NCBI GenBank assembly: GCA_039199695.1 | Contig: JBCCST010000010.1 | Span: 16,635 to 80,634 of the forward strand | From: Planctomycetota bacterium | GTDB taxonomy: Bacteria; Planctomycetota; Phycisphaerae; Phycisphaerales; Phycisphaeraceae | Direction: 5' to 3' | DNA: 64,000 bases | In this document: in pieces, positions 4,857 through 55,436 of the stretch | Layout of the letters: every line of letters starts with the position of its first letter | How positions within the stretch are numbered: the first letter of the stretch is position 1 | The notes under the pieces: generated by a model | The model's database searches: none | What the model saw: only the letters and a program-made list of their open reading frames with translations | What the model was told of the DNA's origin: nothing | Program-made: the position numbers and the translations under genes

Positions 4857-7421
4857 ATGGACCCCATGCCCGACCCCGAAACCCCCGGCCCCGCCAACTC
4901 CGCCGTCACGACCTTGAGCCTCAAACCGGGCGATCAAGTCGATGCTTTTACCATCGTCGACACCATCGCGACGACCGGCTCGGCCGTGGTTTTCAAAGCC
5001 CACGACGCCTTGCTCGATCGCCACGTCGCGATCAAACAGATCATCCTCGGCCATGAAGATTCCGACGAAGCCCTGCGCAAACGCATCCGCGACGAAGCCG
5101 CGATCCACAAACGCGTTTCGACGTCGCAACCCAAACACCTGATCCAATTCATCGACGCCGTGGACGACCCGCGGGGGCTGATGCTCGTCGGCGAGTATTA
5201 CCCGTCGACCTCGCTCGAAGACCTCTTGGCCAAGACCACCGCCCCGCTCGACGAACGCCAAGCGCTCGGCATCGTCGCAGCCACCGCCAAGGGCCTCGAA
5301 GCGATCCACGGCGCGGGCGTGGTCCACCGCGACCTCAAGCCGAGCAACATCCTGCTCGGCGAGGACGGCGGGCTGAAGATCTGCGACTTCGGCCTCTCGG
5401 CGTTGATCGAGTCGCAAGACTCGCTCTCGCTCGGCTCGGTCCGCTACATGGCCCCCGAGTTGCTCAAATCCGAGACCGCCGACGGACGCGCCGACCTCTA
5501 CTCGCTGGGCATCATCGCCTACGAGATGCTCGCGGGGCGAGCGAACTTCGACGTGGCTTTCCGCAATGTGTTGCGTGACCAGCGCAACCAGGCGATGCGT
5601 TGGATGAAGTGGCACACCAACCTCCGCGTGTCCGCGCCGCTGCTCGACGACTACCTGCCCGATCTGCCGCCCCACCTGGTGCAACTCGTGGCCCGGATGA
5701 TGGACAAGGACCAGGCCCGCCGCGTCGGCACCGCGGAGGACGTGATCGACGCCATCCGCCGACACTTCACCGGCGACGGCCCGGATACCGATCTGTCTCC
5801 GCGACGCAGCATCGACCACCCCGGCATGGGTCCCGCCACCACCAGCACCCCGGGCGACACCACGGAGTTGCCGAGCACGAGCAAACTCCCGCTGATGCTG
5901 GGGGGCTTCCTGCTGTTCTGGGTGGTAGTCTTCGGCGTGCTTTTCGTGATCAACGATCAGAAGAAAAAATCCGCCTACAACCAAAAACTGGCCGACGCCA
6001 ACGCCTTGATCGACGAGGGCATTGATCGCTACGACGAAGGCGATTACAACGGGTCCCTCGAAAACTACCAAGCCGTGCTCGCGGTTTGGCCCGAAGAGAG
6101 CGAAGTCGCCCGGAATGCCCAACTCGGCGTCTGGAAAGCCCAGGGCCGTATCGCGTTTGCTGAGGCCCGATACGACGATGCGGTTGCCTTTTTCGAGCAA
6201 TACAAAGACGGGGGTGGCAGTGCGGTGACCGTCGATACCCTGATCCTCGAAGCAAAAGACAACGAGGCTTTTGCCCAGATCGATCAGACGGTGCTCGAAG
6301 CGATCGAAACGGGCGAGTTCACCGAAGCGCAACAAACCGTCAAAGAAGCCCGCGAACAAAACTGGACCGACGGCCAAGTCGCTCGACTGGACGAACTCGA
6401 CACGCTTATCGACGAACGCCGAGCCGAGGTACTGGCCGCCGAGCGCATCGCCGAGGCCCGGCGTCTGGTGGAGGCCGGCGACCGCCCCGCGGCCATCGAA
6501 GTTTTAGAAGATTTGGCCGGGTTGCCCGAAGAAGGCCAGACACTCCTGACCGAGTTACGGGCGGACGTGGCCTACGACAACGCGATCGCGGAAGGCGAAG
6601 AAGCCCTCCGCACCGGCCGACTCGGCGAAGCGGTAGACGCGTGGCGGGCGGCCTTGGCCCTCCGCCCCGACGAAGCACTCGAATCCCGGATCGCCCGCGT
6701 CGAGGCCCGCCGCCTGGTCGCGGAAGCCGCCAAGCTGTTCGACAACGGCGAGTTTGACGCCGCCGAAATCCGCATCGCCGCGGCGCTCGACCAAGACCCC
6801 GAAAACGTCGACGCGCTGCGTCTGCAGCAGCAGATCGCGGTCAAGACCGAGCTCGCCATCATCGAACGGCGAGGCGACGCGGCCCTGGCCGCCGGTAACC
6901 TGAGCGGCGCGATCACCGCTTATGAAGAAGGCCTGGGACTGGCCCCGGATTACCAGGCGCTGGTCCAAAAGCTCAACCGCGTGCGGGTACGCCAAAATCT
7001 CGATAGCGCCCGTGCCGCGATCAACGACGGCAAACTCGATCAGGCCGACGCTTTCCTGAAAGACGCCCAACTCATCGACCCGGACAACACCGACGTGGCC
7101 GAACTGTTGGCCACCCTCGATACGCAGCGCCGCTACCGGGACCTGATCACTCAGGCCGCCGAGGCCCGCGCCATCCCCGATTTCGGCCGGGCCAAGCGCC
7201 TCTACCGCGAGGCCAAAGAACTCGTGCCCGGCGACGAGATCGACAAGCTGATCGAACAACTCGACTTCGACAACTTCCTCGCTCAGGCCCGCGCTTTGAT
7301 CGCCAAGGGCGAACTCGCCGCCGCCCGGGGCATGTTGCAACAGGCCCGCCGCATCGACTTCACCCCCGAACTTGCCAAGCTCCTCGAAGAAGCCGAGGGC
7401 ACCCCGCCGGCCAGCAAGTAA
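4857..7421 (+). CDS. Transmembrane Hanks-type Ser/Thr protein kinase with C-terminal TPR-like repeats
   Basis: Motifs VAIK, HRDLKPSNILL, DFG, YMAPE and DLYSLG, then a single TM (LMLGGFLLFWVVVFGVLFVI) and about 480 aa of TPR-like helical repeats. Confidence 0.9.
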   Translation: MDPMPDPETPGPANSAVTTLSLKPGDQVDAFTIVDTIATTGSAVVFKAHDALLDRHVAIKQIILGHEDSDEALRKRIRDEAAIHKRVSTSQPKHLIQFIDAVDDPRGLMLVGEYYPSTSLEDLLAKTTAPLDERQALGIVAATAKGLEAIHGAGVVHRDLKPSNILLGEDGGLKICDFGLSALIESQDSLSLGSVRYMAPELLKSETADGRADLYSLGIIAYEMLAGRANFDVAFRNVLRDQRNQAMRWMKWHTNLRVSAPLLDDYLPDLPPHLVQLVARMMDKDQARRVGTAEDVIDAIRRHFTGDGPDTDLSPRRSIDHPGMGPATTSTPGDTTELPSTSKLPLMLGGFLLFWVVVFGVLFVINDQKKKSAYNQKLADANALIDEGIDRYDEGDYNGSLENYQAVLAVWPEESEVARNAQLGVWKAQGRIAFAEARYDDAVAFFEQYKDGGGSAVTVDTLILEAKDNEAFAQIDQTVLEAIETGEFTEAQQTVKEAREQNWTDGQVARLDELDTLIDERRAEVLAAERIAEARRLVEAGDRPAAIEVLEDLAGLPEEGQTLLTELRADVAYDNAIAEGEEALRTGRLGEAVDAWRAALALRPDEALESRIARVEARRLVAEAAKLFDNGEFDAAEIRIAAALDQDPENVDALRLQQQIAVKTELAIIERRGDAALAAGNLSGAITAYEEGLGLAPDYQALVQKLNRVRVRQNLDSARAAINDGKLDQADAFLKDAQLIDPDNTDVAELLATLDTQRRYRDLITQAAEARAIPDFGRAKRLYREAKELVPGDEIDKLIEQLDFDNFLAQARALIAKGELAAARGMLQQARRIDFTPELAKLLEEAEGTPPASK

Positions 7422-7506
7422 GTCCGCCCGCCGGCCACGCTCGGCCACACCACCCCACCGCCCCGGAATACACCCACTCCGGATTCGCGTACGGAACACC
7501 ATCCCC

Positions 7507-8340
7507 ATGAGTCAGATGCCCGGTTCTCCCACCGTCCCTTTGCCCAAAAAGCCCGGCCAGGCCGGCGCGACCACACCCGGTGCTCCCCCGGCCAGTCCGA
7601 AGCTCGTGGGTTTGGCGCTACTGATCGCGTTGATCGCGGTGGTGTTGGTCAACCTCTATATCCTTGGCGTCAAAAAGGCGGCCGAGGAAGGCGAGTACCG
7701 GTTCTTCCGGCTGGTGGTCGCCAAAGACGTGGGACAAACTTTGGAACTCGAAGACGTCCGCCTCGTCGGCGTCCCCGAAAGTTTCCGCGATGCGTTCCGT
7801 GACGTTGTCGAACCCAACAGCCAGGGCCAGCCCCTGCGGTTGGGCGATCCGTTTACCCGCCGGGCCGAGGCGGGCGAGCCGCTGACCACGCGCATGTTCG
7901 ACGACCTCACCGGCGACGCCTCCCGCCGGCTGATCACCGAAGGCTTCCGCGGCGTGTCGTTGCCGGTGGTGTCGAAGCTGCTCCCTGACCCGCTCAAGTC
8001 CGAAATGCGGGTGGACATCCTCGCCCCCGTCCGCACGACCGGCGGGCGGCAGGAAATCATGCCCGTGATGGAAAATGTCCGCGTGGTCAGCGTGGGCTCG
8101 CGCACGATCGTCGATGAACAATCCGGCGGCCGATCCGCGGGCAACTTCGAAACTCTCACGGTCGAAGTCCGCCCAGGTGAAGCGGTGCTGCTCGAAGAGA
8201 TCACGCAAGAAGTCCAGAAGACCGGCGTGTACCGTGTCCTGCTGCGTTCCCCGGATGATCAACGCCCGACTTTCATCCCCGAAGGCGGGCTCAATCCCGA
8301 TATCCTCGAACGCTACGGACTACAAGCCGCTTCGCGGTAG
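7507..8340 (+). CDS. cpaB: Flp pilus assembly protein CpaB/RcpC (SAF domain)
   Basis: N-terminal TM, SAF-like segment (VVAKDVGQTLELEDV) and CpaB-type segment (GFRGVSLPV..MRVDIL..VMENVRVVSVG..TLTVEV). Confidence 0.75.
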   Translation: MSQMPGSPTVPLPKKPGQAGATTPGAPPASPKLVGLALLIALIAVVLVNLYILGVKKAAEEGEYRFFRLVVAKDVGQTLELEDVRLVGVPESFRDAFRDVVEPNSQGQPLRLGDPFTRRAEAGEPLTTRMFDDLTGDASRRLITEGFRGVSLPVVSKLLPDPLKSEMRVDILAPVRTTGGRQEIMPVMENVRVVSVGSRTIVDEQSGGRSAGNFETLTVEVRPGEAVLLEEITQEVQKTGVYRVLLRSPDDQRPTFIPEGGLNPDILERYGLQAASR

Positions 8341-8355
8341 ACGCCGCTTCGCGGC

Positions 8356-8453
8356 AGTGATGAGTACTCAGTGAACAGTAATGAGTACGAGTCGCCGACT
8401 AATCCCGAAAACTTGTACCTTCACTCGTCACTATTCACTGTGCACTCATCACT
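8356..8453. repeat. Heptamer-unit inverted repeat element 1 (AGTGATG-type)
   Basis: Left arm AGTGATG AGTACTC AGTGAAC AGTAATG AGT. The reverse complement of the right arm (8423-8453) is AGTGATG AGTGCAC AGTGAAT AGTGACG AGT, matching at 26/31 positions. Confidence 0.85.
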
Positions 8454-8463
8454 CTGACTTGAA

Positions 8464-10329
8464 ATGCAATTCTGGCTCTACGACCACAGCAACAACCTCC
8501 GTCATACCCTCGAGGCCGAGGGCGACCCGATCAACATCGGGCGTGACGATGGCTGTGACATCGTGCTCAAGAGCGCCTTCGTCGCCCCGCGGCACGCCCG
8601 CATCTTGCGCAAGGGCAACCGCATGGTAGTCGAAGCGCTCAGTCAGGCCGGCACCCGCGTCGCCAACCGCGAGGTGCAAAAAGGCGCGCCGATGCTCGTG
8701 GACTTCGGCGACGAGATCCAGATCGGCCAGTTCACCATCGCCATCGTCGGCCGCAACGGCGAGGCCGTCGACACCCGCACCGCCGACGAAGATCGCCTGC
8801 AGGCCCGGCTGATGGAACTCGAACAAGAAGTCCACGCCGAGTTGCTCGAACGCATGAACCTCCGCGTCACGGGGAGCATCCGCAAGGACGACGACGCGTT
8901 CCTCAACCAAGTCCTCTTCCACCTCGACGAAGTGTTGGAGTCTCGCGTCAATGCGCTCGAGCCGGGCATGATCCGACTGGCCTGCATGCACCACCTGCAC
9001 CGCCTGGTCACCGCGGAGGTGGTGCGGCAATGCCAGGGCAAAGTCCAGACCGAATACAAGTCCGGCGACGACCGCCTGCTCAACGCCGCGTTTGAAACGC
9101 AGATCACCGAACTGGTCACGTCGTTGGTCGACATGATGCCGTTGCTGTTCGACCCGTCGAGCGTCAGCGAAGACCTCGCGGTGGCCGAGGACTCTTTCGA
9201 CGAGTTGTTCGAGAAGGAATACCCCACGCTCGACCGCGAGGTGACGCGGTACATCGTCCAACGCACCGTCGCCAAAGACATCCAGGACATCATGCTCGGC
9301 CTCGGCCCGCTGCAAGACCTCCTGGAGATGCCGTCGGTCAGCGAGATCATGGTCGTCGGCAAAGACCGCATCTACATCGAAAAGAACGGCATCATTCAGC
9401 CGACCACGCGAACGTTTTTCTCCGACGACGTGTTGCTGTCGATCATCGAACGCATCCTCGCGCCCGTCGGCCGACGCGTCGACACGTCAACACCGCTGGT
9501 CGACGCCCGCCTCGCCGACGGCAGCCGGGTCAACGTGGTGATCCACCCCTTGTCGCTGGTCGGGCCCTGCATGACCATCCGCAAGTTCGGCTGGGTGCCG
9601 TTCACCATGGACGACCTGGTCGAGCGCGGCGCGATGAGTTCCAACGTCGCGCGGTTCCTGCAGGGCTGCATCGTCGGCCGATCCAACATCGTCATCGCCG
9701 GCGGTACCGGCTCGGGCAAGACCACCCTGCTCAACGTCTTGGGCGCCTACGCCCGGCCCAACGAACGGATCATCACCGTCGAAGAGTCGGCCGAGCTCCA
9801 ACTTCCCCAACCCCACGTCGTCAAACTCGAAGGCCGACCCGCCAACATCGAAGGAAAGGGGGCGTACAGCATCCGCGAACTCGTCCGCAACAGCCTGCGG
9901 ATGCGCCCCGACCGCATCATCGTGGGCGAGGTCCGCGGCCCGGAGGCCATGGACATGCTCCAGGCCATGAACACCGGCCACGACGGCTCGCTCTCGACCG
10001 TCCACGCCAACAACCCCCACGACGCGATGAAACGACTCGAAGCGTTGGTACTCATGGCCGTGGAGATGCCCATGCGGGCGATCCGCGAACAGATCGTCAC
10101 CGCCGTCGACCTCGTGGTTCAGGTCACCCGTTTCGCCTCCGGCCACCGCCGTGTCACCGCGATCTCCGAAGTGACCTCCATCGACCCCGAGACCGGCACC
10201 ATCCGCCTCGAAGACATCTTCACCCTCAAAGACCCCAAGCAACCCACCCTCCGCCACACTGGCTACATCCCCACGTTCGCCGAAGAAATGGTCGAACGCG
10301 GCGACTTCGACGTGGACGTTTTTCTCTAA
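8464..10329 (+). CDS. cpaF: FHA-domain-fused CpaF/TadA ATPase, copy 2
   Basis: N-terminal FHA fold ([25 protein letters not shown]), Walker A GGTGSGKT, Walker [12 protein letters not shown] and His box [12 protein letters not shown]. Confidence 0.9.
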
Positions 10330-49369: not shown

Positions 49370-49639
49370 TTGGCCAAAGCTCACGTCGACCCCGAAGACC
49401 TCGTCAAGTTCGCCAAATCGCTCGGGCACTTCAACCGCACGATGCAGGAGATGACCGGCAGCCTCAAGGGACAGATGCGTCGGCTCGAAACCACCTGGCA
49501 AGACCAAGAGCAGGCCAAGTTCTCACAAGAGTTCTTCGACGCCCTGCGTTTCATCGACCGCTTCGTCGAATCCAACGAACAACACGCCCAGTTGTTGGTC
49601 AAAAAGGCGCGCCTGATCGAGGCCTACCTCGACGCGTGA
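49370..49639 (+). CDS. WXG100-family protein (WxD variant), EsxA/B-like
   Basis: 89-aa helical hairpin with central TTWQD, N-terminal VDPEDL..F and C-terminal IEAYLDA. TTG start. Confidence 0.8.
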   Translation: MAKAHVDPEDLVKFAKSLGHFNRTMQEMTGSLKGQMRRLETTWQDQEQAKFSQEFFDALRFIDRFVESNEQHAQLLVKKARLIEAYLDA

Positions 49640-49704
49640 AGCTCGAAACGATTTGACGTAGTAGTTCGTATTTTCAGCGGCCGATCGATTCACCAAGGAA
49701 GTAC

Positions 49705-50331
49705 ATGGCCAAAGGCGCCCGGGTTCAATCCGTTCAACAACTCGCCGACTTCCGGGCGTTCCTCGTGAAGTTCGCCGAGGGCGTGCGTCACGGCACGAGC
49801 ATCGCCGAAAGCGAAGTCCAAAGCACCGTCCGTTGGCTCAAAGACGAACACCCCCAACGTCTTCTGGGCGAGCGGCGCAAAGCCGAGCGTGCGCTGCAGG
49901 ACGCCACCGACGACCTCCGCCGTAAACGCCTCCAACCCACCGCCACCGGCGACCCGCCCTCGGTGGTCACCGAGCAGAAAAACCTCGCCAAGGCCAAAGC
50001 CAAGAAGCAGTGGCTCGACGACAAACTCACGGCCACCCAACGCTGGTCGCGTCAGTTCGACAAAGAAGCGACCCAGTTTCAAGCCGGACTCCAGGCGGCC
50101 CAAAGCCTGCCCGAAGCCGTGATCTCGCGGGCGCTGGCCCGACTCGAAGGGCACGTCATCGCCCTCGAAAAATACCTGGAAGCCCAGAACCCTCGGCCCA
50201 CCTTGTCTTCGCAACCATCCGCCGACTCGGGTGGGATCGCTCGCAGCGGCGACGTGGGATCCGAAGCCGAAGAGGAATCCGCCACCGCCGACCCCACTGA
50301 TGAAGACCCACAAGACAAGGAACAGCCATGA
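49705..50331 (+). CDS. Elongated WXG100-like helical protein
   Basis: About 160 aa of predicted helix plus an acidic tail. Shares N-terminal LxxFxxxLxxF and C-terminal ExYL[D/E]A with the upstream WXG100 protein. Confidence 0.6.
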   Translation: MAKGARVQSVQQLADFRAFLVKFAEGVRHGTSIAESEVQSTVRWLKDEHPQRLLGERRKAERALQDATDDLRRKRLQPTATGDPPSVVTEQKNLAKAKAKKQWLDDKLTATQRWSRQFDKEATQFQAGLQAAQSLPEAVISRALARLEGHVIALEKYLEAQNPRPTLSSQPSADSGGIARSGDVGSEAEEESATADPTDEDPQDKEQP

Positions 50332-50540
50332 GCCTTGGCGTCGGCGCTTCGACTTTGAACGATGCCCGCAAGGCGCTCAACGCCCGCTGGGACGAACTCC
50401 GCCGCCAGTGGGACGACGCCGCGGCGGCCAAGTTTGAGCAAGATTTTATCCAACCCATGGACCACGACCTCAAGCAAGCGATCGACGCGATGATCCACGC
50501 CCAGCAGGCCGTCCAACGGGCCCGACAGGAATGCACATGA
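50328..50540 (+). CDS. Small WXG100-like protein
   Basis: 70-aa helix-turn-helix with central RQWDD..A.KF. ATGA overlaps with both neighbours. Confidence 0.65.
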   Translation: MSLGVGASTLNDARKALNARWDELRRQWDDAAAAKFEQDFIQPMDHDLKQAIDAMIHAQQAVQRARQECT

Positions 50541-53500
50541 CGTTTAACGGCAGCGAAAACAACGAGAACCCCATCACCTCGGCCGACGCTTCGACGGCGT
50601 TGTCGTCCATCGGCCGACGCCAGCTCGCGGCCCTGGCCGACTTGATCGATCTGTCCAACACCAGCGACCGGGCCGAACGCCTCTTGCTGAGCGACGCCGA
50701 GCAACGCCAACACTTCATCACCCGGCGTTACGAACTCAACCACGACCGCATCACAACCCGGCACCGCACCCGCCGGCACCGCATCGAAAAACAGCACGCC
50801 AAGCAACGCGCCCGCTTCCAACAAGAATTCGATCAGAAGCAGGCCAAGCTCCAAGGCGACGCTCAAGCCCTGCGTAAGAAGATCGAACGCCAGGCCCAGG
50901 AATCAACCAGCAAAACCGCTTCGGAAGAGAGCCACGAAAAATGGGTCGCCGACAGCATGCTCGAAGGCCGGCTCAACGAACTCAAGGCCGAACTCGAACG
51001 CGACCGCGACCAACTCGAAACCATGCGGAACCACGCCGCCGGCTTGGACGAACAAGCGGGCGACACCCTGCGTCGCTACCGCTACCGTGACCTGTCGATG
51101 CCCGAGCACACGCCCTCGACCCCGCCGGCCGACGAAACCCCGGCCGACCCCGAAGCCGCGTTCAACGAGTTGATCGACGACTACCCGCAGCAAGACGCGC
51201 AACTCAAAGCAGCCCTCCAACAGCTCAAGAAACTTTTGCTGCCCGCCTTGTTTCTGAGTTTCCTACCGTATCTCTTTTGGTTCGTCTTAACGCTGGGCAT
51301 TACGGCGGGTTTGATCGTGCTGGGCAACGAACTGGCGTGGACCTGGTCCCCGATCATCACCGGAGCCGGGGCCTTCGTGGTCGGCGGCGGCCTGGTCTGG
51401 CTTGTCGGCAAAATCATATTCAACGCGGGCTCGAAAAAAGTCGCGCTCGCCTTGGGGCAGTATCACGCACAACGCGAAACCCACCTGAACTACCTAGACG
51501 AAGTCCGACACGCCGCGCAGATTAAACACGATGTGCGCGGCGATGCCGCCCGCCAGGAACGCGACGCGGCTCACGACAAAACCAAAGCCAAATATGCCCC
51601 GTATTTCGCCAAAATCGATCAACGCCGCGAACAGTCCGCCGCCGAGCTCGACGGTAAAGTCAAGGGCAAACTTGATCGTATCAACGAACACTTCCAACAA
51701 GAACGCGGCGCCTTCGACGCCGCATCGGCGGACGAACTGAAACAACTCGACGAGCGCTTCGACCGCCGGATCGACATCACAACCCGTCGCCGCGACCGCG
51801 ACCAAACCTCGCTCGACTCCGAACACGGCAGCAGCGCCGCCCGCCTCCAACAGAAATGGGAAGCCGGCCGAGACCGACTGCTCCACAGCCTCGAAGAGAT
51901 GCGTCGGCTTGAAGACACCTCCAATCGGCCGTGGGCCGACGCCGCGTGGGCCGACTGGGTCCCCCCGACCAGCCCCGCCCCGGCGGTCCGCTTCGGTTCG
52001 ATTACGCTCGACACCGACAACCTGCTCGACGAGCAGGCGGCGGGTGGACGTTTCGACCTGAACCTGCCCGCCTCGCTGTCCGTGCCCGCCCTGCTGTCCG
52101 GGCCGGACCAACGGTCCTTCTACCTCGGCACCCCGCCCGAGCAGCGCCCCGCTGCGCTCGCCATGATGCAATCCGTGATGCTCCGGCTGCTCACCACGAT
52201 GCCGCCGGGCCAGGTCAAGTTCACGCTGATCGACCCGATCGGCCTCGGCGAATCCTTCGGCGGTTTCATGCACCTGGCCGACCACGAAGAATCGCTGGTC
52301 AACGGCCGGGTCTGGTCCGAACCCGCCCACATCGACCGCCGGCTCACCGACCTGACCGATCACATGGGGCAGATGATCCAGAAGTATCTGCGCAACGATT
52401 ACGACTCCATTGATCAATACAACGAACAAGCCGGTGAGCTGGCCGAGCCCTACCGCTTCCTCGTCGCCGCCGACTACCCCCAAGGCTTCTCGACCGACGC
52501 CGCCGCCCGACTCAACAGCCTCGCGGCCAGCGGGGCCCGGTGCGGCGTGTTCGTGCTGGTCCTCCACGATCAACGCACCGCCCCACCCACCGGCGAGATC
52601 GACGACCTCAAACGCCACTGCACCGCTGCCTCGTTCAGCCCCGACGACGGCTGGCGTTGGCGTCACCCGATCACCGAGCGCTTCCCGTTTACTCCCGATT
52701 CACCGCCCGACGAAGACCTGGTCAGCCAGATCGTGGGCAAGGTCGGCCGAGCCGCCATCGAGGCCGGCCGGGTCCAGGTGCCCTTCTCGACCATCACCCC
52801 GAACGCCGGCAGCCCCGAGGTGTGGTCGCGCAGCGCTTCGGAAGACCTCGAAGTCGCTATCGGCCGAGCGGGCGCGACCCGGCTGCAATCCTTCCGCGTC
52901 GGCCGCGGCGTGGCGCAACACGCTTTGGTCGCCGGTAAAACCGGTTCGGGTAAGTCGTCGCTGCTGCACACGCTCATCACCAACCTCTGCTTGTGGTATC
53001 CGCCGGATCAGCTTGACCTGTACCTGATCGACTTCAAAAAGGGCGTCGAGTTCAAGCCCTACGTCAACCACCGGCCGCCGCACCTGCGGGCGATCGCGAT
53101 CGAGTCCGACCGCGAGTTCGGCCTGTCCATCCTCAAACGGCTCGACGCGATGCTCGACGAACGTGGCGAGAAGTTCCGCGAAGCAGGCGTGGCGAATCTC
53201 GCCGGCTACCACCAAGCCGTGCCCGATCAACCGATGCCGCGAGTGCTGCTGATCGTCGACGAGTTCCAAGAACTGTTCGGCCAAGACGACGCGATCTCGC
53301 AGAGTGCCACGCAACTGCTCGACCGCTTGGTGCGGCAGGGCCGGGCGTTCGGGATGCACGCCTTCCTCGGCTCGCAGTCGCTCAGCGGTGCCGCGGGACT
53401 ACCCCGTGGCACCATGGGGCAGATGGCCGTGCGCATCGCGCTGCAATGTTCGGAAAACGACAGTCAACTGATCCTCGGCGATGAGAACTCCGCCGCCCGC

Positions 53501-54577
53501 CTGCTCACCCGCCCCGGCGAAGCGATCTACAACGACCAGAACGACACGCTCGAAGCCAACAGCCTGTTCCAGGTCGCTTGGCTGCCCGACCACGAGCTGC
53601 GCGACAGCCTGCGCACGATCACGAACCTTGCGGCCGAGAGCGGGGTTGATCCGGGCGCCTGTCACATCTTCGAGGGTAACGCCCCGGCCGTGCTCGCCGA
53701 GAACCAGCCGCTCAACGCCATGCTGCAAAGCCCCGATTGGCCGGCGGTTCCCAGCGGGACCCACGCCCCCTCGGCCTACCTGGGCGACCCTATCGCGATC
53801 GACGCCCCCACCGCGATCACCTTCCCCAAGCTCAACGGCGCCAACGCCCTGGTCCTCGGGCAAAACGCCGACAACACGCTCGGCCTGCTGTGCGCCGGGC
53901 TCCTGTCGCTCGCCGCGGCCCACCGCCCTGACCGCGCCCGCTTTGTCGTCTTCAACGGTTCGACCGAGCCCGAGCACGACGAACAGCTCCGCCAAACCCT
54001 GGACACGCTACCGCACGGCGTCGCCCAGGTGCCGTTCCGCGATGTCGACTCGTCGCTCGCCGAGTTTCACGCCGAGCTGCAACGCCGCATCGAAGACGGT
54101 GCCCCGACCGACACCGCCGAGGCCCCGACCACGTTCATCGCGGTGTTCGGCCTCCAACGCTTCCGCCAATTCCGCAAGTCCGACGACGGCTTCTCGTTCT
54201 CGCTGGACGACGACGCCGGCGGCGCTTCGAAGCCCGACGAACAGCTGCTGGACCTGTTGCGTGACGGCCCGGTCGTGGGCATGCACCTGATCGTCGTCGC
54301 CGACCGCGCCGCCTCGATCGAACCGGTCTTCGACCGCCGAGCGTTGCGCGAGTTCGACAACCGCGTCATGTTCCAGATGTCCGCCACCGACTCGGCCCAG
54401 ATCATCGACAGCAGCGAAGCCAACGACCTCGGCCCCTACCGGGCCTTGCTCTACCGCGAAGACCGCGGGACGATCACGCGCTTCCGGCCGTATGGGATGC
54501 CTTCGGAGGATGACCTCGCCCGTTTCAAACACTCGCTTGCCCGATCAATCCGAGGAAATTCGACTTCCCGGAGTTGA
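50537..54577 (+). CDS. Membrane-anchored FtsK/SpoIIIE-family ATPase, EssC/EccC-like, with three P-loop-fold domains
   Basis: Coiled coil, two TMs, coiled coil, degenerate domain 1, intact domain 2 (AGKTGSGKS, YLIDFKKG, IVDEFQE, RQGRAFGMH..GSQ) and degenerate domain 3. Confidence 0.88.
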   Translation: MTFNGSENNENPITSADASTALSSIGRRQLAALADLIDLSNTSDRAERLLLSDAEQRQHFITRRYELNHDRITTRHRTRRHRIEKQHAKQRARFQQEFDQKQAKLQGDAQALRKKIERQAQESTSKTASEESHEKWVADSMLEGRLNELKAELERDRDQLETMRNHAAGLDEQAGDTLRRYRYRDLSMPEHTPSTPPADETPADPEAAFNELIDDYPQQDAQLKAALQQLKKLLLPALFLSFLPYLFWFVLTLGITAGLIVLGNELAWTWSPIITGAGAFVVGGGLVWLVGKIIFNAGSKKVALALGQYHAQRETHLNYLDEVRHAAQIKHDVRGDAARQERDAAHDKTKAKYAPYFAKIDQRREQSAAELDGKVKGKLDRINEHFQQERGAFDAASADELKQLDERFDRRIDITTRRRDRDQTSLDSEHGSSAARLQQKWEAGRDRLLHSLEEMRRLEDTSNRPWADAAWADWVPPTSPAPAVRFGSITLDTDNLLDEQAAGGRFDLNLPASLSVPALLSGPDQRSFYLGTPPEQRPAALAMMQSVMLRLLTTMPPGQVKFTLIDPIGLGESFGGFMHLADHEESLVNGRVWSEPAHIDRRLTDLTDHMGQMIQKYLRNDYDSIDQYNEQAGELAEPYRFLVAADYPQGFSTDAAARLNSLAASGARCGVFVLVLHDQRTAPPTGEIDDLKRHCTAASFSPDDGWRWRHPITERFPFTPDSPPDEDLVSQIVGKVGRAAIEAGRVQVPFSTITPNAGSPEVWSRSASEDLEVAIGRAGATRLQSFRVGRGVAQHALVAGKTGSGKSSLLHTLITNLCLWYPPDQLDLYLIDFKKGVEFKPYVNHRPPHLRAIAIESDREFGLSILKRLDAMLDERGEKFREAGVANLAGYHQAVPDQPMPRVLLIVDEFQELFGQDDAISQSATQLLDRLVRQGRAFGMHAFLGSQSLSGAAGLPRGTMGQMAVRIALQCSENDSQLILGDENSAARLLTRPGEAIYNDQNDTLEANSLFQVAWLPDHELRDSLRTITNLAAESGVDPGACHIFEGNAPAVLAENQPLNAMLQSPDWPAVPSGTHAPSAYLGDPIAIDAPTAITFPKLNGANALVLGQNADNTLGLLCAGLLSLAAAHRPDRARFVVFNGSTEPEHDEQLRQTLDTLPHGVAQVPFRDVDSSLAEFHAELQRRIEDGAPTDTAEAPTTFIAVFGLQRFRQFRKSDDGFSFSLDDDAGGASKPDEQLLDLLRDGPVVGMHLIVVADRAASIEPVFDRRALREFDNRVMFQMSATDSAQIIDSSEANDLGPYRALLYREDRGTITRFRPYGMPSEDDLARFKHSLARSIRGNSTSRS

Positions 54578-54611: not shown

Positions 54612-55436
54612 TTAACTCTCGTCAATATCAAATCTACGTAAACTCATAGTGCGTACGAGTGCGTCTTCTGTTCCGAACAAGGAATAGTGGTTGATATTGA
54701 AATCATCTAACTGACGTAACGCTGTTATTCGGTCTGATCGAGGCAGAGTTAGCTTGATCAACACATCTTGATGGGCAATTGGAGATGGCACAACATCATG
54801 ATGCGAACAAAACATATGCCTATTCCGCTCTGAATCCCAAGTGGTTGCTGTCGTATACCACGCTTTCTGATTGAAGTGTCTTGCATGCGTCGTCACGTAT
54901 GGCCCATGTGTATCAATCATGCTTTCTCCTCCACTTGCAGATTTATGTCCTTCAGGTGTTTCGATGAACGCATAAACAGACACATAGCTAGCGCTACCAG
55001 CAGACTCAAAAGCAAAATACGCTGCGATGTAAGGGGAAGTGGTCCAATCCAATAGTGGCGATGGAAAGCCATGATGCCTTAAGTGAACAAGATAGTCGTA
55101 ATGCGGAAGATAAACCCGCATAGAATCTTGCCTATTTTCTATTTCACGCAAAATCTCAGGATATGTTTTTAATCCCCACTGCTTACCGCTGACTGATTCG
55201 ATCTCGTTGACACAAGAATCTGCTCTCTGCAAATACTTTTGTACTGAATACTCCTCGGTTGAAGCACGCTCAAGCGTAGTAATTAGAGGCCAATCACTAT
55301 TAGCTTGACCACGAAAAAGTATCTCGTTATCGAGCTCCCTACCGGAAATACCGACAGTTCGCTTCCCGTATTTATTTCTAATGTCGGATATAGCAGTTGC
55401 ATAATCCGCCCATGAATTCAGCGTAATCGTTTCCAT
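54612..55436 (-). CDS. FRG domain-containing protein, low GC
   Basis: LFRGQANSDWPL..TLER and LRHHGFPSPLLDWTTSPYIAAYFA. Confidence 0.88.
   Translation of the reverse strand: METITLNSWADYATAISDIRNKYGKRTVGISGRELDNEILFRGQANSDWPLITTLERASTEEYSVQKYLQRADSCVNEIESVSGKQWGLKTYPEILREIENRQDSMRVYLPHYDYLVHLRHHGFPSPLLDWTTSPYIAAYFAFESAGSASYVSVYAFIETPEGHKSASGGESMIDTHGPYVTTHARHFNQKAWYTTATTWDSERNRHMFCSHHDVVPSPIAHQDVLIKLTLPRSDRITALRQLDDFNINHYSLFGTEDALVRTMSLRRFDIDES

Follow-up and report, generated by a model that had tools for sequence, protein, structure and literature searches.

We analyzed a stretch of 64,000 nucleotides (contig JBCCST010000010.1, here called the window) from a Planctomycetota bacterium of the class Phycisphaerae and, within it, a cassette of four closely packed genes on the + strand, the open reading frames (ORFs) O1, O2, O3 and O4 (Table 1). 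O1 encodes a WXG100 protein and O4 an ATPase resembling those of type VII secretion systems (T7SS); between them lie the genes for a long helical hairpin protein (O2) and a truncated WXG100-like protein (O3). The stop codon of O2 is overlapped by the ATG of O3, and O3 and O4 overlap by 10 nucleotides. Orthologues carry ATG at the position where O1 of the window has TTG, and the start of O1 is therefore confirmed. An earlier note on this DNA, written from the letters alone, had proposed that terminal motifs common to O1 and O2 form a novel targeting signal. Our analysis points to a smaller element, a tyrosine (Tyr) near the end of the helical part of both proteins together with its upstream neighbours, which may act as a targeting or docking determinant.

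Table 1. Features of the cassette and their positions in the window (AF2, AlphaFold2; pLDDT, predicted local distance difference test)
Feature	Position	Strand	Remark
O1, 89-residue WXG100 protein, HP0062-like, W-Q-D turn	49370..49639	+	TTG start
O1 N-terminal motif LVKFAKSLGHF, residues 11-21	49400..49432	+	conserved in 49 orthologues
O1 C-terminal motif LIEAYLDA, residues 82-89	49613..49636	+	Tyr86 codon 49625-49627
O2, 208-residue protein, long helical hairpin (residues 10-161) and acidic disordered tail	49705..50331	+	
O2 N-terminal motif LADFRAFLVKF, residues 13-23	49741..49773	+	inside the O1-homologous segment
O2 hairpin loop QPTATGDPPSV, residues 77-87	49933..49965	+	sole non-helical stretch within the hairpin (AF2)
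O2 C-terminal motif ALEKYLEA, residues 153-160	50161..50184	+	Tyr157 codon 50173-50175
O2 disordered acidic tail, residues 162-208	50188..50328	+	pLDDT 53-69 (AF2)
O3, 70-residue truncated WXG100-like protein, W-D-D turn, without either motif	50328..50540	+	
O4, 1348-residue membrane FtsK/SpoIIIE (EssC/EccC/YueA-like) ATPase	50531..54577	+	
FRG-domain gene	54612-55436	-	directly downstream of the cassette

O1 genuinely belongs to the WXG100 family. It scored 32.1 bits against the Pfam family WXG100 (PF06013), above the cut-off of 27.3, and 26.4 bits against TIGR03930, which is under the cut-off of 44.85 for that model. The best match of the O1 profile was HP0062 of Helicobacter pylori (PDB 3FX7/2GTS, E 3e-12), followed by EsxB and EsxA proteins. 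With its 89 residues, O1 is modelled by AF2 as a helix-turn-helix (helices 8-40 and 46-88, pLDDT 91.7), and the top 44 Foldseek matches of this model in the PDB are all WXG100 proteins (TM-score 0.64-0.89). The turn reads W43-Q-D45 instead of Trp-x-Gly, and none of 49 orthologues departs from its W and D.

The gene for O4 belongs to the same operon, 0.9 kb downstream of O1, and this linkage is kept in relatives. It matched FtsK_SpoIIIE of Pfam (8e-34), and its best NCBIfam matches were EccCa (TIGR03924, 130 bits), EccCb and EssC, although the scores for TIGR03924, TIGR03925 and TIGR03928 were all far under the cut-offs. Two hydrophobic, transmembrane segments lie at about residues 234-300, and there is one Walker A motif at 802 (GKTGSGKS) and one Walker B motif at 905. 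Solo WXG domains have been listed for planctomycetes, verrucomicrobia, some proteobacteria and other lineages (Zhang et al. 2012, PMC3482391, Table 1 footnote 6), where they go with a distinct YueA-like ATPase that has three HerA/FtsK domains, the middle one alone being active (PMC3482391). The single Walker A/B pair of O4, in the middle of the ATPase region, agrees with this description. The cassette is of this known kind, 'solo WXG + YueA-like ATPase' (Zhang 2012, PMC3482391). In contrast to our cassette, the footnote contains neither a long-hairpin protein nor a 70-residue protein nor the terminal motifs, and a literature search turned up neither the long-hairpin protein nor these motifs. 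What is new here is the Tyr-centred end motif common to the WXG100 protein and the protein in the cargo slot, a new variant within a known cassette.

O1 reads MAKAHVDPEDLVKFAKSLGHF...ARLIEAYLDA followed by the stop codon, and O2 reads MAKGARVQSVQQLADFRAFLVKF...IALEKYLEAQNPRP... The pattern LxxFxxxLxxF that the earlier note had described can be read directly in both proteins, as LVKFAKSLGHF in O1 and LADFRAFLVKF in O2, and it was also right that [I/L]ExYL closes the helical part: in the AF2 models Y86 of O1 is in the last turn of helix 2 and Y157 of O2 is 4 residues before the end of helix 2. O3, as claimed, contains neither pattern. The start MAK.A.V, said to be shared as well, is exact in O2 (MAKGARV), but O1 (MAKAHV) aligns with it only after insertion of a one-residue gap. 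These patterns are short and were defined after viewing the sequences, so that a chance likeness between two helical, Leu/Glu-rich proteins has to be considered. We counted them in the six-frame ORFs of at least 50 residues from the genome, which is 93% complete. Among 22,828 ORFs, LxxFxxxLxxF occurred in 44 and [IL]E.YL[DE]A in 4, and the only two with both were O1 and O2; the joint expectation for one protein is about 9e-8, a post hoc figure. The occurrence of both motifs at the same positions across the phylum already refutes chance, and H. pylori has a parallel pair of proteins (see below), which leaves a fortuitous match barely credible. The earlier note had also envisaged more substrates in the proteome. 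Scanning all ORFs of the genome with hidden Markov models (HMMs) of the families and of the joint N- and C-terminal motifs recovered O1, O2 and O3 alone, the next matches having E values of about 1. Should the motifs constitute a tag, this organism's cassette would have no clients beyond its own products.

We next compared orthologues. In 49 O1 sequences from across the phylum, P8, F14, L18, L39, W43, D45, E47, F51, L76, A80, Y86 and L87 never vary, L11 and F21 hardly do, and positions 88-89 are variable. Among 46 O2 sequences sampled equally widely, Y157 is the sole invariant residue; L154 is kept in 40, position 155 is acidic in 43, F16 and F23 are each kept in 38, positions 13 and 20 are hydrophobic, and positions 158-160 are variable. 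Database relatives gave the same picture, with [IV]E[ED]YL in 120 of 120 for O1 and Y157 in 63 of 63 full-length sequences for O2, and in neither set was the Tyr ever replaced by Phe. The expectation of the earlier note that the C-terminal motif is conserved in orthologues was thus borne out for the invariant Tyr core, but not for the last two positions, which are free, or for the Glu, which shifts. In the form ExYL[D/E]A the motif has to be given up: the trailing [D/E]A is conserved in neither family, and the conserved acid, which is at Y-2 in O2 and in O1 of Phycisphaerae, is at Y-1 (I-R-E-Y-L) in O1 of other classes, where E84 is replaced by R, Q or K. Judged from these alignments, the robust C-terminal core is [I/L/V]-(acid at -2 or -1)-Y.

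The cassette itself is conserved. Of 301 Phycisphaerae genomes sampled, 95 have the O2 family, as a single copy each, and it also occurs in other classes of the phylum; a sample of 401 genomes from the whole of Planctomycetota contained O1 in 52. Named relatives place the genome of the window close to Algisphaera, and Algisphaera agarilytica has a member of the O2 family as well. The gene order O1-O2-O3-O4 is the same in 29-30 of the 30 Phycisphaerae loci that we fetched. Twenty loci came from other Planctomycetota classes, 2 of them cut by contig ends, and most of these have this order too; O1, O2 and O3 occurred jointly in 15, of which 13 also yielded O4. Two further database searches, whose results were swamped by close relatives, gave no matches outside Planctomycetota.

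Profile comparison with hhalign related the three small proteins to each other. With phylum-wide alignments, residues 1-51 of O1 aligned to residues 1-52 of O2 with probabilities of 71-90% and P values of 2e-6 to 4e-5, and reversed-sequence controls had P values of at least 0.0075. This alignment passes through the Trp of the WxD turn (W43 in O1, W44 in O2). Residues 25-82 of O1 aligned to residues 10-67 of O3 with a probability of 82%; the relation between O1 and O2 is equally strong. The O1 HMM also matched one O2 orthologue (L043) directly, at both ends. Alignments restricted to Phycisphaerae gave no significant relation between O1 and O2 (probability 1%), and significance appeared once other classes were added. 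O2 has no match to a family HMM; its N-terminal 52 residues align to O1, and its hairpin has about 150 residues instead of about 90. By profile comparison, O1 and O2 are distant paralogues, with O2 a probable elongated member of the WXG100 superfamily. Because the homology spans about 50 residues of both proteins, the N-terminal motif is inherited; it is the WXG100 helix-1 sequence and not the separate new signal that it had been taken for.

Significant N-terminal homology is what one would expect if both motifs were inherited structure only, closing or stabilizing the open ends of the hairpins without any role in targeting. Their heptad-like hydrophobic spacing (L76/I83/Y86-L87 in O1 and L147/L154/Y157 in O2) fits this explanation, and WXG100 proteins generally keep a hydrophobic C-terminal pattern (PMC3935865). 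A Tyr that merely packs should, however, drift to Phe or Leu, yet it is invariant in about 280 sequences from two families that are about 30% identical. By helix lengths it would lie in an overhang beyond helix 1, outside the two-helix core, and O3 folds into a WXG100-like hairpin with neither motif. We consider packing alone to be an unlikely explanation.

In the AF2 model of O2, two helices of about 70 residues (10-76 and 88-161, pLDDT 93-98) are joined by the loop 77-87. The proposal that O2 is a lengthened hairpin holds, given this two-helix model and the homology of its N-terminal half to O1. O2 had no matches in Pfam (E <= 1, LXG PF04740 included) or NCBIfam, a PDB sequence search with its profile returned nothing meaningful, and Foldseek with the model found no match at E <= 0.001 and generic long hairpins only. 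The best superposition was with Lap hairpins (8GMH, TMt 0.62-0.63, not significant). WXG, LXG and LDXD domains have been described as export domains of T7SS (Zhang 2012, PMC3482391). Like the WXG/LXG trafficking domains of polymorphic toxins and the LXG-Lap complexes of T7SSb, O2 combines a long N-terminal helical hairpin with a C-terminal module that varies, and small WXG100-like proteins are encoded beside it. It differs from LXG toxins in that it has no LXG match and in that its C-terminal module is an acidic tail or an Imm33-like domain and not a toxin. The tail is absent in other Planctomycetota classes. In about half of the Phycisphaerae orthologues the hairpin is followed by the Imm33-like domain, whereas the window copy has the tail only.

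Several further features of O2 were noted. The longer orthologues (L010-L012, L014, L015, L017, L019, L020, L023-L026, L028 and L032) have 328-361 residues. Their extra globular C-terminal domain has about 130 residues, follows a linker and matches the Imm33-like family of Pfam (PF24719, 47.6 bits in L011); many database matches of O2 carry the same flag. Here a cargo-like protein bears a domain of the immunity type, the reverse of the situation in H. pylori with its toxin. The tail of the window copy contains, at window positions 50230-50250 (residues about 176-182, GGIARSG), a short hydrophobic-[A/S]-Arg motif that is conserved in Phycisphaerae (consensus M-x-R, R180), with the remaining tail variable. 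Close relatives show no variation over residues 69-92 (DDLRRKRLQPTATGDPPS), the turn of the hairpin with its shoulders, and G82, S86, E90 and K92 are kept across the wider Phycisphaerae; this stretch is a second candidate for a functional site, located at the hairpin's closed end. At window positions 50035-50060 (residues about 104-117, including W114), TQRWSRQFDKE, a second Trp-centred stretch of O2, weakly resembles the first (VRWLKDEHP) and the WxD region of O1. An internal duplication of O2 had weak support (N half versus C half in hhalign, P 0.0036; a stray match of the N-terminal HMM to residues 104-117) and was not adopted.

O3 scored 20.5 bits against WXG100 and 27.3 bits against TIGR03930, both under the cut-off. 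Its W28 and D30 are invariant, and 27 of 30 Phycisphaerae orthologues have exactly 70 residues. The description of O3 as a WXG100-like protein without the motifs was accurate; the alignment to O1 given above indicates that it is trimmed at both ends. O3 ends (window positions 50529-50537) in [D/E]-Cys-x-COOH, a conserved element whose Cys is shared by 43 of 45 sequences from the whole phylum. This penultimate Cys could be a site of disulfide formation or modification, or a recognition element of its own.

The translational coupling and co-occurrence of O1, O2 and O3 raise the possibility that the end motifs form the interface of a hetero-oligomer of the three proteins, comparable to LXG-Lap or PE-PPE, and that the ATPase recognizes something else, for example the loop of O2 or the C-terminal Cys motif of O3. 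The helices of O2 (about 67-74 residues) roughly equal in length the O1 hairpin and the O3 hairpin placed end to end, and among the structures with the best TM-scores to the O2 model, none of them significant, are the LapA3/LapA4 hairpins of the TelA-LXG complex. HP0062, on the other hand, crystallizes as a homodimer without such partners (PMC3397514), and one reader common to both subunits would account more simply for their identical motifs than a mutual interface. An interface role in place of recognition by the ATPase seems to us quite improbable.

HP0062 (PDB 3FX7 and 2GTS) is the best solved relative of O1, with a TM-score of 0.83 at the E value given above. It resembles O1 in its length of about 86-90 residues, its W-R-D turn, a C-terminal acid-Tyr and a linked FtsK/SpoIIIE ATPase. 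The presence of W-x-D in place of W-x-G in HP0062 has been described, as has its crystallization as a homodimer (PMC3397514), and HP0062 and the FtsK-like HP0066 have been termed a minimal T7SS set (PMC4978471). Native HP0062 has 86 residues, and 23 of 24 strains have the end ...LE[EQ]DY, so that, unlike O1, HP0062 ends exactly at the Tyr. The 'LEH' after this Tyr in the 94-residue chain of 3FX7 is the start of the His-tag, as seen by comparison with the genomic sequences (L055-L078); taken at face value, the PDB sequence would overstate the likeness to Y-L of O1.

The gene after HP0062 starts with MAEWKTDTEEVKK..., close to MSRVQMDTEEVRE... of HP0062 itself. It encodes a conserved N-domain of about 185 residues that ends in ...AIDNEY directly before a strain-variable part. 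The protein in this O2 slot is a polymorphic toxin of 395-500 residues in total, in strain HUP-B14 with a WHH nuclease (40.4 bits, cut-off 25.1), and it is followed by a SUKH-1 immunity gene (35.9 bits, cut-off 25.4) and then by the FtsK-like ATPase. Since the O2 slot of H. pylori holds a WHH toxin with an HP0062-like N-terminus, the view of O2 as cargo gains support. In this second phylum, too, the gene behind the WXG100 gene has a start like that of its neighbour and a domain closing with acid-Tyr, and there its product is plainly a cargo. The ATPase of H. pylori differs from O4 in lacking the long N-terminal coiled coil and is split into two overlapping ORFs in strain HUP-B14, and we recognized no equivalent of the 70-residue O3 in the H. 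pylori cassette. The WHH toxin and SUKH-1 genes of HUP-B14 are at 7272-8627 and 8597-8971 of locus L061. A 599-bp contig labelled Streptomyces kronopolitis (L080) encodes a protein 94% identical to HP0062, which is most likely an assembly contamination.

The signal YxxxD/E of T7SS substrates is said to go back to Daleke in 2012. Similar to this signal, the Tyr of O1 and O2 is on the last turns of helix 2 (Y86 in helix 46-88, Y157 in helix 88-161 of the AF2 models), and it is carried by some members of the set and absent from the small partner O3. Export in known T7SS depends on a Tyr-based motif that closes helix 2 and that the partner protein does not have, and the signal residues of canonical WXG100 proteins project out of the helical bundle (PMC3935865). 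The extended pattern HxxxD/ExxhxxxH places a hydrophobic residue, an acid at +4 and further hydrophobic residues at +7 and +11 on one face of a helix (Poulsen 2014, PMC3935865). In O1 of Phycisphaerae, A80-xxx-E84-xx-L87 fits the first three positions, and the protein ends before the fourth.

By analogy with these systems, we propose that the Tyr-centred end motif is a targeting or docking determinant of O1 and O2, a reading to which we give a probability of about 50%; an export-signal role is plausible on the same grounds. In the models of O1 and O2, helix 2 is longer than helix 1 by 7-10 residues. This would place the Tyr beyond the start of helix 1, in the overhang of helix 2 and beside the non-helical N-terminal residues, which read M-A-K-A-x-V-D-P in O1 and M-A-x-G-A-x-V-x-S in O2. 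The two terminal motifs may then be two strands of one structural site at the open end of the hairpin, where the N-terminal residues ahead of helix 1 and its opening turns (A-x-V-[D/S]-P-x-x-L-x-x-F-x-x-x-L-x-x-F) would adjoin the final turns of helix 2 ([I/L]-[D/E]-x-Y), a contact deduced only from the helix lengths. The Tyr-centred surface would dock O1 and O2 as in canonical T7SS substrates, most likely to the ATPase of the cassette and possibly together with the WxD turn of the motif-less O3. Such a signal would vary the YxxxD/E type in that its acid lies upstream of the Tyr and not at +4. O2 would be the cargo-type member, with a long trafficking hairpin and a variable C-terminal module, represented here by the acidic tail alone, in relatives by an Imm33-like domain and in the H. 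pylori counterpart by a WHH nuclease.

Several observations weigh against this proposal. The YxxxD/E spacing, which the earlier note had cited as the established precedent, is absent in both proteins. No more than 3-5 residues follow the Tyr of O1, the last being R, H or A; O1 of the window stops before Y86+4, and orthologues have R or H there. At Y157+4, O2 of the window has Q, and only a minority of sequences have D/E. The C-terminal match between O1 73-88 and O2 144-159 is too short to count alone, its P values of 0.017-0.035 overlapping those of the reversed controls. The hydrophobic positions of the motif follow an ordinary a/d coiled-coil pattern, so that much of the motif could be packing. 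The placement of the Tyr in the overhang and the contact between the N- and C-terminal segments come from predicted helix lengths only. Finally, neither an outer-membrane conduit nor accessory core membrane components of T7SS (EssA/EssB/EsaA, EccB/D/E or MycP) are encoded near the cassette, and export across the diderm envelope is therefore itself hypothetical.

An extension of the proposal, which we regard as speculative and doubtful in its full form, is that the solo-WXG cassettes of diderms, Planctomycetota through Helicobacter, possess a bipartite export tag peculiar to them, read by an ATPase with a single active domain. In this tag, A-x-V-[D/S]-P-x-x-L-x-x-F would be clasped to [I/L]-[D/E]-x-Y, with the hydroxyl of the Tyr essential. 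It would be enough to route across the inner membrane both a WXG100 protein and a long-hairpin cargo with swappable C-terminal modules such as a nuclease toxin or an Imm33-like domain.

The cassette is flanked by housekeeping genes for a DegT aminotransferase, YchF and GyrA and by a gene for an FRG-domain protein. The FRG-domain gene has a GC content of about 44%, compared with about 63% around it, and was probably acquired horizontally. Its product matches the PADLOC candidate defence family PDC-S15 (E 5e-35). The PADLOC scan placed the small proteins of the cassette in no defence system, and O4 had only generic matches of the FtsK/HerA-type P-loop.

Overall, the Tyr-centred motif offers a precise handle on substrate choice, with one Tyr per protein that is invariant across the phylum and mirrored in H. 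pylori, and our results suggest that the long-hairpin protein O2 occupies the cargo slot of the cassette. If the motif is only structural, O1 and O2 would illustrate nothing beyond ordinary paralogy. With a real tag, the substrates of these systems would become predictable, and the signal logic of the T7SS type would predate the split between the Gram-positive and diderm versions.

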